A DNA stretch of 12,061 bases, taken from a virus. Lineage: Duplodnaviria > Heunggongvirae > Uroviricota > Caudoviricetes. Shown here piece after piece: positions 321 to 12,061 of the stretch (the stretch's first letter is position 1; the number at the start of each line of letters is the position of its first letter). The translations under genes and the position numbers were made by a program. The notes beneath the pieces were generated by a model. The model was not told where the DNA came from, ran no database searches, and saw only the letters and a program-made list of their open reading frames with translations. Where the stretch lies: positions 78,463-90,523 of the IMG/VR virus record IMGVR_UViG_3300010412_000010. One strand, 5' to 3'.

Positions 321-893
321 ATGGACAGAATTTCCAGTATTATCAGAAAGGCGATTGTAAAAACTCATCCTGTATTGGCAACCGAAGAAGACAATTGGTT
401 GTTTGATGGCAGTGAAGATATTCTTACTGAAGCCGAACTTGCACAAAAGAAAGGCCATTTGGATTTTGATGGTGTGGTATTTGTTTATTTCAATATCAAT
501 TTGTCGCGAAAACTGAATACCCCGTTGTGGTCTGTGCGTAACGCAAAAACTGGGGTTATCCTTGGACACGACCGCGAAATTGTGTTGAAAGATGCTGAGT
601 TTGTTGTTGGGCAGGGCGGTAAAGAGCGCGTTCGCAAAGAAATGAACAAGAATGTTCATGCTGGTGTTCGTGGAAAAATTGTACACAATGTAAAGGCGGA
701 CACCAATGGAACCGCAGTGACTTATAATCCATATAAGTATGACACCTTCGTGAGATTGCCAAGCGAAACGCCAGTCAAGTCAGCAAAACATGTGAGCATG
801 GTTGACAAAAAAGTTTGGGCGACTGGTATCGAAGATATGAAACCAGAAGAGCTTAATGACCTGCGACAAAGGTCGGAAAAATACAAGGGTTGA
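321..893 (+). CDS. Phage hypothetical protein: ~45-aa N-terminal extension plus a widespread phage domain of unknown function (VYFN...SV...F.V...G..RV..E..KNVHA.V.G...VTYNPYK...FV)
   Basis: 190-aa ORF coupled to the upstream stop. The C-terminal motif set is recognised from phage hypotheticals. Confidence 0.8.
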   Translation: MDRISSIIRKAIVKTHPVLATEEDNWLFDGSEDILTEAELAQKKGHLDFDGVVFVYFNINLSRKLNTPLWSVRNAKTGVILGHDREIVLKDAEFVVGQGGKERVRKEMNKNVHAGVRGKIVHNVKADTNGTAVTYNPYKYDTFVRLPSETPVKSAKHVSMVDKKVWATGIEDMKPEELNDLRQRSEKYKG

Positions 894-5156: not shown

Positions 5157-5230
5157 ATTAATCCAATACAAGTGTAAAAATACGGTGCGCAATGTGCCGA
5201 TGATAACTTTTGTTTCTATATGGAGAAAAC

Positions 5231-7219
5231 ATGAACAATAATATTTCTACTATTCCTGATACCAACGACATTATGGATGAGTATATGAGGTTTATTGCAT
5301 TGAGTCGTTATGCGCGATGGCTTGATGATAAAGGAAGAAGAGAAACTTGGCAAGAAACTGTGGCGCGTTATTTCGATTTTTTTGAAGGTCACATTAAGAA
5401 CCGCAATCCAAAAGCAATCAAGCAATATAAAAAAATTAGACCTATGCTCGAACAGAGCGTACTAAACCTGAAAGCAATGCCGTCAATGCGCTGTTTAATG
5501 ACTGCTGGCGTAGCATTGGAACGAGACGAGGTTGCCGGATTCAATTGCTCATATGCTGCGGTTGACAATGTTCGTGTTTTTGATGAAATCATGTATATCC
5601 TGCTGTGTGGAACTGGTGTTGGGTTTTCCGTTGAGCGCCAATACACAAACAAGCTTCCAGAAATCGCCGAGGATTTTTATGAGTCTGATACAACAATTGT
5701 TGTTGCTGATAGCAAGATTGGTTGGGCGAAATCATTTAGAGAATTGATTAGCCTGTTGTATTCTGGTCAGATTCCGAAATGGGATGTATCAAAAGTGCGA
5801 CCCGCTGGTTCCAGACTGAAAACTTTTGGTGGAAGAGCTTCCGGCCCAGAACCATTGGTTGACCTATTTCGGTACTCCATTACACTGTTCAAAAAAGCAG
5901 CCGGAAGAAAACTATCGGATTTGGAATGTCACTCACTGGTTTGCAAGATTGCAGACATCGTTGTTGTGGGTGGGGTTCGTCGCTCTGCTCTTATCAGTCT
6001 GAGTAATTTGTCGAGTGATAGAATGCGCCATGCAAAAATGGGGCAATGGTGGTTGATAACGCCTGAGCTTGCGCTGGCAAACAACAGTGTGTGCTATACC
6101 GAAAAGCCAGACTTTGATTCTTATTTGCGGGAAGTTGTTGCGTTGCATGAGTCTCGCTGTGGCGAACGCGGTTTCTTTTCTCGTGTTGCAAGTAAAAAAC
6201 AAGCGGCAAAGAATGGAAGAAGAGACGCAGACCACGAATTTGGTACCAACCCATGCAGTGAAATTATTCTGAGGCCAAATCAGTTTTGCAATTTGTCCGA
6301 AATCGTTGTTAGAGCGGATGACACTCTCGAAACACTAAAAGAAAAGGCCGTTGTTGCTACTATTCTTGGAACACTGCAATCGACGCTTACAAATTTCCGG
6401 TATCTGCGAAATGTTTGGAAGCAAAATACCGAAGAAGAAAGACTTCTTGGTGTTTCGTTGACTGGTAACATGGATAACTTCTTTATGAGTGGCATGAAGG
6501 CATATTATTTTTCTGGTAGTGGTGAACTGCCAAAAGAATTGTCGGTGGTTCTTAACGAGCTTAAACAGGTCACGATTGATACCAATGCCGAATGGGCAGA
6601 TATTCTTGGAATTGAACGGTCTGTCGCAATCACATGTGTCAAGCCTTCCGGTACAGTTAGCCAATTGGTTGATTCTGCTAGTGGTATTCATGCGAGATTC
6701 AGTGATTACTACATTAGAAGGGTTAGGGCGGATGAAAAAGACCCGTTGGCTCAATTCATGATGCAAGCTGGATTTCCGTGCGAGCGTGATGTAACTAAAT
6801 CGTCAAACTTGGTTTTTAGTTTCCCGAAAAAATCACCAGAAGGAAGCGTGAAGGTTGATGATTTGACAGCAATACAACAGCTTGAAATTTGGAAGACATA
6901 CCAGCAACATTGGTGCGAACACAAACCATCGGTCACCGTGTATTACACTGATGATGAATTTTTGGCAGTGTCGCAGTGGGTGTGGGAAAACTTCGATATC
7001 ATTTCTGGTATTAGCTTCTTGCCAAAAGAAGACCATGTGTACCAACAAGCACCATACGAAAAAATTTCGAAAGAAAAGTATGAAGAGCTTCTTGCTGCAA
7101 TGCCAAAAGATGTCGACTGGGATGCGCTGTCTACATTCGAGAGCGAAGACAATACTGCCGGAACCCAAACATTGGCATGTTCTGGTGGGTCGTGTGAAAT
7201 TGCAGATTTGAGTTCGTAA
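5231..7219 (+). CDS. nrdJ: Class II (adenosylcobalamin-dependent) ribonucleotide reductase, monomeric RTPR-like
   Basis: Motifs SRYARW, MPSMR, GFNC, GTGVGFS, GGVRRSALI, active-site TNPCSEI/QFCNLSE, KPSGTVSQL and C-terminal redox pair ACSGGSCEI. There is no ATP-cone and no nrdB downstream. ATG 5231 has GGAG at 5222-5225; 662 aa. Confidence 0.93.
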   Translation: MNNNISTIPDTNDIMDEYMRFIALSRYARWLDDKGRRETWQETVARYFDFFEGHIKNRNPKAIKQYKKIRPMLEQSVLNLKAMPSMRCLMTAGVALERDEVAGFNCSYAAVDNVRVFDEIMYILLCGTGVGFSVERQYTNKLPEIAEDFYESDTTIVVADSKIGWAKSFRELISLLYSGQIPKWDVSKVRPAGSRLKTFGGRASGPEPLVDLFRYSITLFKKAAGRKLSDLECHSLVCKIADIVVVGGVRRSALISLSNLSSDRMRHAKMGQWWLITPELALANNSVCYTEKPDFDSYLREVVALHESRCGERGFFSRVASKKQAAKNGRRDADHEFGTNPCSEIILRPNQFCNLSEIVVRADDTLETLKEKAVVATILGTLQSTLTNFRYLRNVWKQNTEEERLLGVSLTGNMDNFFMSGMKAYYFSGSGELPKELSVVLNELKQVTIDTNAEWADILGIERSVAITCVKPSGTVSQLVDSASGIHARFSDYYIRRVRADEKDPLAQFMMQAGFPCERDVTKSSNLVFSFPKKSPEGSVKVDDLTAIQQLEIWKTYQQHWCEHKPSVTVYYTDDEFLAVSQWVWENFDIISGISFLPKEDHVYQQAPYEKISKEKYEELLAAMPKDVDWDALSTFESEDNTAGTQTLACSGGSCEIADLSS

Positions 7220-7224
7220 TAAAT

Positions 7225-7245
7225 CGCCCCTTCGGGGGCGTTTTT
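7225..7245 (+). terminator. Rho-independent terminator with a cUUCGg tetraloop
   Basis: CGCCCC-TTCG-GGGGCG-TTTTT directly after the nrdJ stop. UUCG loops are a hallmark of T4-like terminators. Confidence 0.95.
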
Positions 7246-7252
7246 ATTTCTG

Positions 7253-7260
7253 GATAAATA
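7253..7260 (+). promoter_or_regulatory. Putative T4-type late promoter (GATAAATA) for the RuvC-like gene
   Basis: One mismatch to consensus, immediately after the terminator and 29 nt before ATG 7290. Confidence 0.65.
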
Positions 7261-7287
7261 TTCTCACTACAATCACAAGTGAGAATA
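7259..7287 (+). promoter_or_regulatory. RBS-sequestering hairpin (TATTCTCACT-N9-AGTGAGAATA)
   Basis: Perfect 10-bp inverted repeat. The 3' arm contains the GTGAG Shine-Dalgarno-like site 6 nt before ATG 7290, and the 5' arm overlaps the late box. Confidence 0.75.
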
Positions 7288-7289
7288 CT

Positions 7290-7847
7290 ATGAAAGTTGC
7301 AGGAATTGATTACAGCATAAATGGCCCTTCTATTACTATTGTCGATACAGACCTTCCGTTTTGTTTTGAAAACACCAAAACCTTTTTCCTGACCAAAACC
7401 AAAAAACACGCCGATGTTTTGTTTGGTGGAAAAATTGTTGGTGGGTTGTTGTCCGACTATTCCACACAAGAAGAAAGGTTTTTCAATAATGCCAAATGGC
7501 TGGTTGACCTTTGTGTGGAACATTCCGTGGAACACTGCCTGATTGAAGACTACGCCATGGCCGCTAAGGGCAGGGTATTCCACATTGGAGAAAACTGTGG
7601 AGCCATGAAAGGCCGTCTGTGGGCTTTTGGCATACCATTTGATGTGGTTGCCCCCCAGATACCCAAAAAGGCCGCTACGGGCAAGGGAAACGCGGATAAG
7701 GCACTTATGCACGATGCTTTCATGGCAGAAACCGGAATTGACCTGAAAAATACCATGACGCCAGATAAAAAGGCTGTTGACAGCCCAGTTGCGGATATTG
7801 TAGACTCTTATTTTATAGCCAAATTGTGCCACGAAAAATTTTCTTAA
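7290..7847 (+). CDS. ruvC: RuvC-like Holliday junction resolvase (RNase H fold)
   Basis: N-terminal AGIDYS (catalytic D), IEDY (catalytic E), PxxxKKxxTGKGNADK and DIVDSY (final acidic pair). Confidence 0.85.
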   Translation: MKVAGIDYSINGPSITIVDTDLPFCFENTKTFFLTKTKKHADVLFGGKIVGGLLSDYSTQEERFFNNAKWLVDLCVEHSVEHCLIEDYAMAAKGRVFHIGENCGAMKGRLWAFGIPFDVVAPQIPKKAATGKGNADKALMHDAFMAETGIDLKNTMTPDKKAVDSPVADIVDSYFIAKLCHEKFS

Positions 7848-7851
7848 AAAG

Positions 7852-7880
7852 TTGTTTTTTCGAAAAAACCGTGTTATAGT
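7852..7880 (+). promoter_or_regulatory. Sigma70-type (early) promoter TTGTTT-N17-TATAGT with an extended -10 TG and an upstream A-tract
   Basis: -35 at 7852-7857, TG at 7872-7873, -10 at 7875-7880, then GAGGA RBS (7901-7905) and ATG 7913. Confidence 0.75.
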
Positions 7881-7912: not shown

Positions 7913-8245
7913 ATGACCACACCAGCCTTTGAAACCGCCCTGAGTTCGTTTGTTGTGTTGGCCAATGCCCGCCTGAATGAGTATTTCGAGCGCCATTTTC
8001 CGAACATTCCTCGCGAAGTAATCAGCGTTGCCGCTGGCGGTCGTAAATACGCCAAATTGGTTGCCCGCCGCGATGATGCCGGTAAAGGTGGCTGTGTTTA
8101 TGCCTTCGTTGACAAGAAAACCGGCGAAATTTTCAAACCAGCCAGTTGGGCTGCCCCCGCTGCCCATGCGCGCGGAAATGTTTTTTCTGAATACAATGGT
8201 GAAGAAGCATTGAGCGATAACGGCTCTCACATTCGGTATCTGTAA
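7913..8245 (+). CDS. Conserved small phage protein (GRKYAKLV...VYAFVDKKTGEIFKPASW.APA.HARGN; from memory DUF7717-like)
   Basis: Highly recognisable motif from T4-like and cyanophage hypotheticals. Strong RBS and promoter. Confidence 0.85.
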   Translation: MTTPAFETALSSFVVLANARLNEYFERHFPNIPREVISVAAGGRKYAKLVARRDDAGKGGCVYAFVDKKTGEIFKPASWAAPAAHARGNVFSEYNGEEALSDNGSHIRYL

Positions 8246-9656: not shown

Positions 9657-9684
9657 CTGGTATGGACGAATGTTGGAGTTATTC

Positions 9685-10365
9685 ATGTCAAACAAAATCA
9701 AACCAGCGTTGTATGCTCTTTGGGCTATCGTATACAAATTGTCAATTTTTCCTTTGGAAGCAATCGCTTGGATTGTTGGCGTGTTTCTTACCGGCGTCCT
9801 GATTGCGCTTGACAAAACAGAAATCGTCGATAACCCAGAAGAAGAAGCAACCCATCCAGAAGGTTGGAAGCTGGAAATTTTTCCACAAAAATGGATGACC
9901 CTGTATAACAATTACGACAATGGTATGCAGGGCGATTCTCGTTGGTGGAGAAGCCTAGCGGAACAAGGCAAGAGTCCACTGTCAAAGTGGCAGAAATTTG
10001 TATGGACAAATTTTCGCAATCCAGCAAATGGTTTCCGTTGGATTGACCCAATCTTTAGTTATTATGCACAGAATGTAGGCTTGCCAGAATATGTTGGCGA
10101 TTACTACATTTCAGACAAATATGGAATCGAAGGTTTCCGTATTATCTGGGTTAAGACAAAATCTTTCCCATACTTGTATTCCGGAATTTATTATGTTAAG
10201 GTGTACAACAGGAATGCAAAGGTAGGGTCTTTCTGGTATGGTAGATACTTTGTTGCCAGAATTGGATTCAAAACATCGCCAGACCATACACCAGAAAACA
10301 GAACCAGCCCCGTTGGTTCCGTGTTTAGAATCTGGCCATTTGACAAACACGACGGTGCCGAATAA
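9685..10365 (+). CDS. Trp-rich phage membrane protein (N-terminal hydrophobic segment; ...DN...GD..WW...W...RNPANGF...GFK; from memory DUF7338-like)
   Basis: 226-aa ORF with an RBS and a late promoter. The motif is recognised from phage hypotheticals. Confidence 0.75.
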   Translation: MSNKIKPALYALWAIVYKLSIFPLEAIAWIVGVFLTGVLIALDKTEIVDNPEEEATHPEGWKLEIFPQKWMTLYNNYDNGMQGDSRWWRSLAEQGKSPLSKWQKFVWTNFRNPANGFRWIDPIFSYYAQNVGLPEYVGDYYISDKYGIEGFRIIWVKTKSFPYLYSGIYYVKVYNRNAKVGSFWYGRYFVARIGFKTSPDHTPENRTSPVGSVFRIWPFDKHDGAE

Positions 10366-10366
10366 C

Positions 10367-10522
10367 ATGTCATCTAAACCAAAACAGAAAGGCGTTATCG
10401 CCAGACGAAATTTGGCTGCTATGTCAGATATCATGCGTAAAGGTGGAGCGCACAGGATTTCCAATAAGGCAATTCGTGCAAAGGAAAAGCGCAAGTGGAA
10501 AGAAGATAATGGACTCGCATAA
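10367..10522 (+). CDS. Small basic peptide (51 aa, RKGGAH...K..R.K.K motif)
   Basis: ATG 1 nt after the upstream TAA, and it overlaps the next gene. Lys/Arg-rich. Confidence 0.55.
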   Translation: MSSKPKQKGVIARRNLAAMSDIMRKGGAHRISNKAIRAKEKRKWKEDNGLA

Positions 10523-10862
10523 CGACGACGATTTTGAAAAAATTTTTGAGGATTACATTATGGAAACGAAAGACATTGACGCAAAAAAACTAATTGCCGA
10601 TATCGGGATTGCCAAGGCCGGTCAATATTTGGCAGACGCAATCAAGAAACATGTTGTGCGAATCGAGTTTACGAAAAAAGATGGTACCAATCGGGTTCTT
10701 GTTGGTACCACAAAACCAAACCACATTCCAAAAGACAAGAAGCCAACCGGTGATGACACCAGAAAAAAATCAACCGAAGTGGTCGTTGTTTTTGATTTGG
10801 ATAAGTCTGAGTGGAGAAGTTTTCGTATCGACAGCCTAACAAAATTCAGGATTGTTTCTTAA
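10509..10862 (+). CDS. WYL_2 / Sm-like SH3 beta-barrel protein (DUF2693-type), common in T4-like phages
   Basis: Motif V.IEFTKKDGT.R...GT....IP...V.VFDL....WRSFR. The start is ATG 10509 (or 10560). Confidence 0.85.
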   Translation: MDSHNDDDFEKIFEDYIMETKDIDAKKLIADIGIAKAGQYLADAIKKHVVRIEFTKKDGTNRVLVGTTKPNHIPKDKKPTGDDTRKKSTEVVVVFDLDKSEWRSFRIDSLTKFRIVS

Positions 10863-11650: not shown

Positions 11651-12010
11651 ATGCATTCTGGTGATGTGTTCCCAAAAGAATTTGCGCGCGGTAAAGTCGA
11701 TGATGACTATGTTGATGACATTCCATTGTTTTGTGGATGTGATTTGATAATCGTCGAGGGCAGAACCGAGGTGTTTATTATTCCAATCGGAAGCGGAAAC
11801 GCTTGCTATATATACGACAACAATGAATTTCCCGTAATGTCACTTGCTGCTGGTACCAAAAGCAAAGACATCATGTTGTTGAAACAACCAAAACATGCTG
11901 TTGAGTTTACCAAACTGAGCACTACTTTTTTCTTGTTTAATTTATTTACCTTGCCACTGGAAACACTTCGTTTTATCAAGCGCCATTTATTCAAAAGAAA
12001 CTTTGAGTGA
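11651..12010 (+). CDS. Hypothetical protein (true start uncertain; frame open from 11597)
   Basis: 119-aa ORF filling the gap, with a hydrophobic C-terminal stretch and no RBS at ATG 11651. Confidence 0.55.
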   Translation: MHSGDVFPKEFARGKVDDDYVDDIPLFCGCDLIIVEGRTEVFIIPIGSGNACYIYDNNEFPVMSLAAGTKSKDIMLLKQPKHAVEFTKLSTTFFLFNLFTLPLETLRFIKRHLFKRNFE

Positions 12011-12019
12011 GAATTGTTT

Positions 12020-12061
12020 ATGCCGATGTATGAGTATCATTGTGATTCGTGTGATTCGTGT
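12020..12061 (+). CDS. 5' end of an FmdB-family zinc-ribbon protein (truncated by the window)
   Basis: MPMYEYHCDSCDSC matches the MPxYEYxCxxC signature. Only 14 codons are visible. Confidence 0.6.
   Translation, partial: MPMYEYHCDSCDSC

Follow-up and report, generated by a model that had tools for sequence, protein, structure and literature searches.

The 70-nt spacer between a ribonucleotide reductase gene and a RuvC-like Holliday junction resolvase gene in a T4-superfamily phage probably acts as a late-only translational switch of the kind described for T4 gene 49. The spacer holds, in order, an intrinsic terminator, a putative T4-type late-promoter box and a perfect inverted repeat whose right arm ends 2 nt before the resolvase start codon. 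The stretch of DNA that we analyzed (the window, 12,061 nt) is the final 12 kb of a 90,523-bp viral contig, with a completeness of about 50% as estimated by CheckV. The features needed for the argument are as follows, in window coordinates:

5210..7219, + strand: nrdJ, class II (B12-dependent) ribonucleotide reductase gene (phrog_367, E 4.8e-188; Pfam RNR barrel and RNR-II insertion domains)
7225..7249, + strand: intrinsic terminator, a 6-bp all-GC stem with a UUCG loop (7225-7240), then TTTTTATTT (7241-7249)
7253..7260, + strand: putative late-promoter box GATAAATA, T4 type, gp55-dependent, with a predicted +1 at 7266
7259..7268, + strand: left (5') arm of the hairpin, TATTCTCACT, overlapping the final 2 nt of the box; 7266-7268 alone expected in the late transcript
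7269..7277, + strand: hairpin loop of 9 nt, from sequence and fold
7278..7287, + strand: right (3') arm, AGTGAGAATA, with a weak SD-like GUGA/GAG (7279-7283), ending 2 nt before the ATG
7290..7847, + strand: RuvC-like Holliday junction resolvase gene, 185 aa (phrog_159, E 1e-26)

The phage and its RuvC-like resolvase

The initial BLAST matches were ribonucleotide reductase genes of podo- and siphoviruses and suggested that the phage is not T4-like, a view overturned when the contig was searched by tblastn with T4 core proteins. Homologues of the late sigma factor gp55 (E 4.6e-18, genome 39916-40365), the sliding clamp gp45 (E 1.5e-19), gp44, gp43, gp46, gp47 and RegA (50% identity, genome 67913-68269) were matched, and we therefore place the contig in the T4 superfamily; the match to gp62 was weak (E 0.08). 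T4-type late regulation, which the earlier note on this DNA had taken for granted, thus finds support in the encoded gp55 homologue. A single-protein scan of viral contigs matched no near relative of the phage, and the closest RuvC homologue has 51% protein identity. Because the collections contain no near relative, architecture was compared across homologues and not in aligned columns.

The nrdJ gene, whose exact start is uncertain, lies directly upstream of the RuvC-like gene. Small neighbouring genes (window 321-893, 7913-8245, 9670-10365 and 10443-10862) belong to families of unknown function: mycobacteriophage L5 gp82-like (PF25735), DUF7717, DUF7338 and WYL_2 Sm-like SH3 domain protein. 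An Rfam search of the window matched no family. The gene starting at 12020, cut by the contig end, encodes a product whose N-terminus, MPMYEYHCDSC, resembles FmdB-type zinc-ribbon regulators; the right-arm 9-mer AGTGAGAAT of the hairpin recurs once in the genome, 5 nt before this ATG (window 12006-12061), and the start region of the gene, GAAUUGUUUAUG, resembles what we take to be the RegA target consensus. An FmdB-like gene is found shortly 3' of RuvC in Vi01, KpS110, JA15 and Vibrio phage 1.244.A, followed in 1.244.A by gp33 and gp32. In relatives gp33 sits just past the point where this contig ends, and because of this gene order the missing half of the genome probably continues with gp33.

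The AlphaFold model of the 185-aa product (pLDDT 91.8, pTM 0.90) has an RNase H-like fold of the RuvC type. Its best PDB matches were RuvC of D. radiodurans, T. thermophilus, P. aeruginosa and E. coli, and all top matches were RuvC proteins. When the product was aligned with 35 homologues (36 sequences), no variation was seen at D7, E86, D169 and D172; we take these residues to be equivalent to D7, E66, D138 and D141 of E. coli RuvC. The alignment profile matches D. radiodurans RuvC (E 2.6e-5). The protein missed the gathering score of Pfam PF02075 (16.4 vs 22.2 bits) and is therefore classed here as RuvC-like, not as a member of the Pfam RuvC family. It shares its fold and the four acidic residues with bacterial RuvC (E. 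coli 1hjr, T. thermophilus 4ld0/6s16, D. radiodurans 7xhj) and with RuvC of Lactococcus phage 67 (4ktw), at Foldseek E values of 4e-10 to 3e-5 and TM scores of 0.6-0.75, but differs from them by an extra N-terminal beta-hairpin region and by a sequence identity of 13-20%. The model thus supports the assignment of the product as a RuvC-like junction resolvase. The suggestion that this resolvase is not homologous to that of T4, having a RuvC fold and not that of Endo VII, agrees with both the structural matches and the conserved D-E-D-D set.

The earlier note had also proposed checking whether the genome lacks a gp49 homologue. No Endonuclease_7 (gene 49) match was found in the contig; as the contig is only about 50% complete, this absence alone proves little. 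Endonuclease_7 was likewise absent from four complete RuvC-bearing relatives, Vi01, RSP15, DLP6 and Cr30, in a search that detected the T4 control at E 3.9e-23.

Terminator, late box and hairpin in the 70-nt spacer

The terminator is a GC-rich stem-loop (CGCCCC-TTCG-GGGGCG) followed by a T-run. It was also detected by a terminator consensus scan and is present in every fold. The element had previously been placed at 7225-7245; its T-tract in fact runs to 7249. An AT-rich palindrome, GTTTTTTCGAAAAAAC, lies just 3' of the RuvC stop (window 7852-7867) and is too weak for a classical terminator.

The late box was found exactly where it had been claimed, at 7253-7260. GATAAATA is an 8-bp TATAAATA-like sequence of the T4 late type, for which no -35 element is required; it carries G instead of T at -13, a position that is poorly conserved among the late boxes of T4-like phages (PMC1524935). 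The + strand of the 90.5-kb genome carries 33 copies of the 7-mer ATAAATA, the - strand 4. Nineteen of the 33 + strand copies of NATAAATA are intergenic, though intergenic DNA, defined as what crude gene calls leave, makes up 5.9% of the genome, and ATAAATA is by far the top enriched intergenic 7-mer genome-wide. Copies are located 17-65 nt 5' of baseplate wedge, tail sheath, portal and major head genes; some sit before replication-region genes too. The preceding base varies (T, G or C), in agreement with other T4-like phages (PMC1524935). Since ATAAATA tops the intergenic 7-mers and precedes late structural genes, GATAAATA is a credible late promoter, and NATAAATA may credibly be regarded as the late promoter sequence of this phage. 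Mere AT-rich spacer composition was ruled out as the source of ATAAATA by the lack of enrichment of other AT-rich 7-mers and by the 33:4 strand bias. A module composed of a GC-rich terminator, a T-run, 3-4 nt and NATAAATA recurs at genome 59808-59852 and about 75120-75163, and looks like a standard terminate-and-restart late cassette of this phage.

The two arms of the hairpin are perfectly complementary over 10 bp, with all pairs Watson-Crick and no G-U; both the inverted repeat (7259-7287) and the ATG at 7290 are as originally described. The right arm had been said to bury the ribosome-binding site. The SD-like region is indeed paired, with the qualification that the site itself is weak (GUGA/GAG) and contains no canonical GGAGG. 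The hairpin folds at -10.8 kcal/mol, compared with -3.3 +/- 1.6 kcal/mol for 200 dinucleotide shuffles (z -4.8), none of which was as stable, and the stem is retained in 96-nt and 131-nt folds. In silico folding of the long RNA hence sequesters the SD/AUG region in a stable helix.

There are 6 perfect hairpins of at least 10 bp in the 90.5-kb genome, vs about 1.5 in Markov-simulated genomes. By our estimate, about 0.01 such hairpin is expected by chance within any of the approximately 20 box-to-start leaders; because these leaders make up less than 1% of the genome, chance placement of the hairpin here is unlikely. By a cruder measure, mean pairing over -13 to +3, the RuvC-like start ranks 17th among 122 starts and is no outlier, and the long-minus-short difference in this measure is small (0.12). 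Mean pairing is diluted by the unpaired spacer, the AUG and spurious ORF starts, and we prefer free energies and shuffle z-scores.

T4 late boxes span positions -13 to -6 (PMC1524935). With this geometry the +1 is predicted at 7266, inside the left arm, so that the late promoter is placed where late transcripts would lose the 5' strand of the helix and retain 3 nt of it. A late start near 7266 that keeps about 3 nt of the left arm, as the earlier note had anticipated, is thus borne out, as a prediction, by the published box geometry. Folding energies are -10.8 kcal/mol for the long RNA and 0 kcal/mol for RNA that runs from 7266 to the AUG; since the former folds and the latter does not, the long RNA would hide the ribosome-binding site and the predicted late RNA would expose it. 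Of 200 dinucleotide shuffles, 199 have more structure than the predicted leader with the first RuvC codons (7266-7330; z +2.1), which suggests selection for an accessible initiation region.

We propose the following sequence of events. Transcripts from upstream promoters would mostly end at the terminator (7225-7249). Read-through RNA would hold both arms, and the hairpin, pairing the weak SD region to within 2 nt of the AUG, would block the 30S subunit. After gp55 and gp45, presumably with gp33, have directed host RNA polymerase to late promoters, RNA synthesis would begin about 6 nt past GATAAATA (around 7266), within the left arm. The resulting mRNA would keep 3 nt of the arm, form no helix and have an open leader, allowing the resolvase to be made. 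Junction cutting would in this way be limited to the late period, when branched replicating DNA needs resolving for packaging.

A double lock of terminator and hairpin in the style of T4 gene 49, the central idea of the earlier note, is supported in silico by the elements themselves, the folds, the T4-like machinery and the recurring layout described below. The hairpin could be nearly redundant, because the strong terminator just upstream may leave few read-through transcripts. The weak SD, the G at -13 of the box, the hairpin-free syntenic relatives and the rank of 17/122 also count against the switch.

Two more sites in the genome show a comparable contrast between long and short RNA. At genome 48926-48990 (L004:8926-8990), TATAAATA at 48936-48943 lies within the 5' arm of a long helix, which also takes in the SD and the GTG start codon (48976) of a gene for a 290-aa protein; the long RNA folds at -23 kcal/mol (z -4.6) vs -2.8 kcal/mol for the predicted late RNA. 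This protein falls in a viral family of unknown function and weakly matches Pfam AAT / peptidase C45 (E 2.6e-4). At genome 17170-17255 (L002:17170-17255), the SD (AAGGA) of a 104-aa ORF pairs with a CCUUGAU located about 30 nt 5' of the box CATAAATA at 17207, with -24.7 kcal/mol for the long form (z -3.4) vs -3.4 kcal/mol for the short one. Given these two additional candidates, the phage appears to use the device repeatedly, as T4 does.

Leaders of other RuvC-like genes and alternative readings

The order of box, hairpin and ATG was found before the RuvC-like genes of RSP15, Vi01, KpS110, JA15, Kevin, phiMAM1, SKML-39, pSal-SNUABM-02 and one IMG/VR locus (L075). In RSP15, Vi01, KpS110, JA15 and L075, the 3' end of the box opens a hairpin, and 0-6 nt separate this hairpin from the RuvC ATG. 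Six leaders, these five among them, were folded both ways and gave -10 to -16 kcal/mol for the long form and 0 to -3.6 kcal/mol for the short one. For the Serratia phages Kevin and phiMAM1, and for SKML-39 and pSal-SNUABM-02, 73-nt segments that include the hairpin fold at about -22 kcal/mol. DLP6 combines a terminator with a degenerate box and with a 7-bp stem that adjoins the RuvC ATG.

The RuvC-like genes of Ackermannviridae (Vi01, KpS110, JA15, Kevin, phiMAM1, SKML-39) and of RSP15 are homologous to the window gene (27-40% identity) and share the order of elements with it. Their stems, of 11-14 bp, differ in sequence from that of the window and take in most of the box (AAAUACCC...GGGUAUUU); their gene order is RuvC, a hypothetical gene, FmdB and gp33, whereas the window gene instead follows nrdJ. 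In a MAFFT alignment of eight Ackermannviridae/RSP15 leaders the stems were one column out of register between genera, so individually folded stems were compared. These vary by compensatory change (CCCAUAAC/GUUAUGGG vs CCCGUAAC/GUUACGGG; AUAC..GUAU vs AUAG..CUAU), and pairing is preserved through A-U to G-C changes between Kuttervirus and Miltonvirus and through a C-G to G-C change beside the box in Agtrevirus. The gene-49-style layout proposed for the window is hence shared, with differing stem sequences, by T4 gene 49 and by RuvC genes of several distant lineages.

In Vibrio phage vB_VcorM_GR28A (L097:300-373), a strong hairpin AAAAUCCCCUG...CAGGGGAUUUU encloses the sole SD-like run and stops 3 nt short of the annotated RuvC-like start; the surrounding 130-nt fold has -34.6 kcal/mol. 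No recognisable T4-type box was seen at this locus, and the late promoter of the GR28A lineage may differ from the T4 type.

Other loci are organized without the hairpin. In Cr30, pf16 and some metagenomic loci the RuvC gene is coupled to the upstream ORF with no spacer. Four loci with the same succession of nrdJ and RuvC as the window (L032, L048, L056, L057) have a box but no hairpin, the box being placed for a leaderless mRNA. Among 72 non-redundant IMG/VR RuvC loci (within L014-L093, e.g. L014:660-677 and L015:1486-1503; boxes counted were NATAAATA, CTAAATA or ATA[CG]ATA), a late-type box ends 4-8 nt before the ATG in 43, most often at 5 nt (25 loci). The background for this layout is 1.25% of all ATGs and 5% of neighbouring ORF starts, and 41 of the 43 loci are without an SD-like motif. 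With T4 geometry a 5-nt spacer puts the +1 on the A of the AUG, which implies that the close-box loci would make leaderless late mRNA. Judged by their sequences, then, RuvC-like genes of the T4 superfamily nearly always carry a putative late promoter of their own; the window locus is the hairpin variant, and the predicted leaderless arrangement is the commoner one. A literature search returned no description of hairpin control of RuvC-like genes, nor of leaderless late mRNAs in T4-like phages.

These comparisons bear on three other readings of the spacer. The one that survives best, though we consider it unlikely, is that the true start lies 5' of 7259, so that the hairpin is part of the functional mRNA, either as a constitutive brake that keeps a potentially toxic nuclease scarce or as a message-stabilising 5' stem. 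Scarce expression of a resolvase is plausible, the start at 7266 is a prediction, and another late box of this phage (30038) precedes a hairpin that would fall inside the transcript. Against it, T4-type geometry puts the +1 inside the arm (PMC1524935), and there is no other promoter-like site between the terminator and the hairpin. The overlap of box and left arm, present in every relative, would moreover have no purpose.

We give still less credence to a second reading, in which a dimeric phage protein binds the inverted repeat as a DNA operator overlapping the late promoter and start, and represses or times transcription, not translation. The operator of I-TevI overlaps that gene's own late promoter and, when bound by I-TevI, would be one analogue; a resolvase recognising an extruded cruciform would be another. 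In the case of I-TevI the operator site is part of a multi-layered control (PMC2988022). The repeat in the window, perfectly Watson-Crick without G-U, is equally good as DNA, and it overlaps both the box and the predicted +1. The full palindrome, however, occurs once in the genome, and it is the right half-site alone that recurs, again just before a start codon, which fits a role in translation initiation. The right arm, with the SD, abuts the AUG in all relatives, the T4 gene 49 stem would, as DNA, have a mismatch where the RNA pairs G with U, and no candidate regulator was identified.

The least probable reading, a chance palindrome in an AT-rich spacer before a gene simply expressed from its late promoter after an ordinary terminator, could draw on the single locus, the moderately stable AU-rich stem and the hairpin-free syntenic relatives, but is opposed by the shuffles (z -4.8, 0/200 as stable), by the roughly 0.01 such hairpins expected in box-to-start leaders and by the recurrence of the architecture before RuvC genes of unrelated lineages and before T4 gene 49.

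Relation to T4 gene 49 and established late-only switches

If the spacer is indeed a late-only translational switch, unrelated nucleases, Endo VII and RuvC-like, are under the same late-only control in T4-superfamily phages. The same control on two unrelated resolvases would imply strong, repeated selection against having a resolvase during recombination-dependent genome replication. It is possible, though we find it doubtful, that the cassette of box, hairpin and ATG predates either resolvase gene, the leader having been retained while Endo VII and the RuvC-like nuclease displaced one another. A regulatory region would then have outlived its gene, at a resolvase slot that an ancestral phage of the T4 superfamily had next to its ribonucleotide reductase genes. 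Several observations hint at this: T4 and this phage share a distance of 29 nt from box to ATG; the left arm begins AAAUACC(C/U) in T4 gene 49, Ackermannviridae, RSP15 and L075; ribonucleotide reductase neighbours are found in T4, this phage, DLP6, RSP15 and pf16; and Endonuclease_7 is absent from the four complete RuvC-bearing genomes, and T4 is not among the 414 phage records that match the RuvC-like protein. The rival view is plain convergence of the gene 49 and RuvC leaders, since pairing arises almost automatically between a box with AAAUA at its end and an SD with UAUUU after it.

For T4 gene 49 we draw on the T4 sequence itself and on two reviews. In their accounts of Barth et al. (1988), this gene for endonuclease VII has a helix that sequesters the ribosome-binding site, with a late promoter in the 5' arm (PMC2988022, PMC3014915). 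In the T4 record, 29 nt separate AATAAATA from the ATG; the left arm contains the box, and the right arm, which abuts the AUG, contains the SD. The leader folds at -15.9 kcal/mol in the long form and at 0 in the short one. The window resembles this arrangement in its late box (GATAAATA vs AATAAATA), in the identical 29-nt spacing from box to ATG, in a 5' arm that begins in or at the box, in an SD-bearing 3' arm that ends 0-2 nt before the AUG, in a loop of 5-9 nt, and in a stable long form with, by folding, an unstructured late form. Both genes encode the junction resolvase of their phage, by similarity in our case, and both have ribonucleotide reductase genes as neighbours. Their products are unrelated (RuvC / RNase H-like fold in the window, Endo VII fold in T4), and the window stem is shorter and weaker (10 bp, -10.8 vs about -16 kcal/mol) and shares only 2 nt with the box. 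Unlike T4 gene 49, the window has a terminator directly upstream, and no nested internal start is evident in it.

The combination of late box, hairpin and ATG could serve annotators as a signature for predicting expression timing in uncultured phages. The mechanism of the switch has been known since the 1980s and is textbook T4 biology; the locus is a good further example of an established device, adding breadth but no new principle. Late-only translation through hairpins is established for T4 e, soc, 49 and I-TevI (PMC3014915, PMC2988022). T4 e, soc and I-TevI, together with mobE of phage Aeh1, follow the same logic as that proposed here: the SD and/or AUG is concealed in read-through RNA of the early or middle period, and a translatable RNA comes from a late promoter that lies inside the 5' strand of the helix (PMC3014915, PMC2988022). 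Several of these genes encode nucleases, as the window gene appears to do. They are otherwise different genes, and in them 5' ends have been mapped and effects measured, about 100-fold for gene e, whereas the window switch is predicted from sequence.
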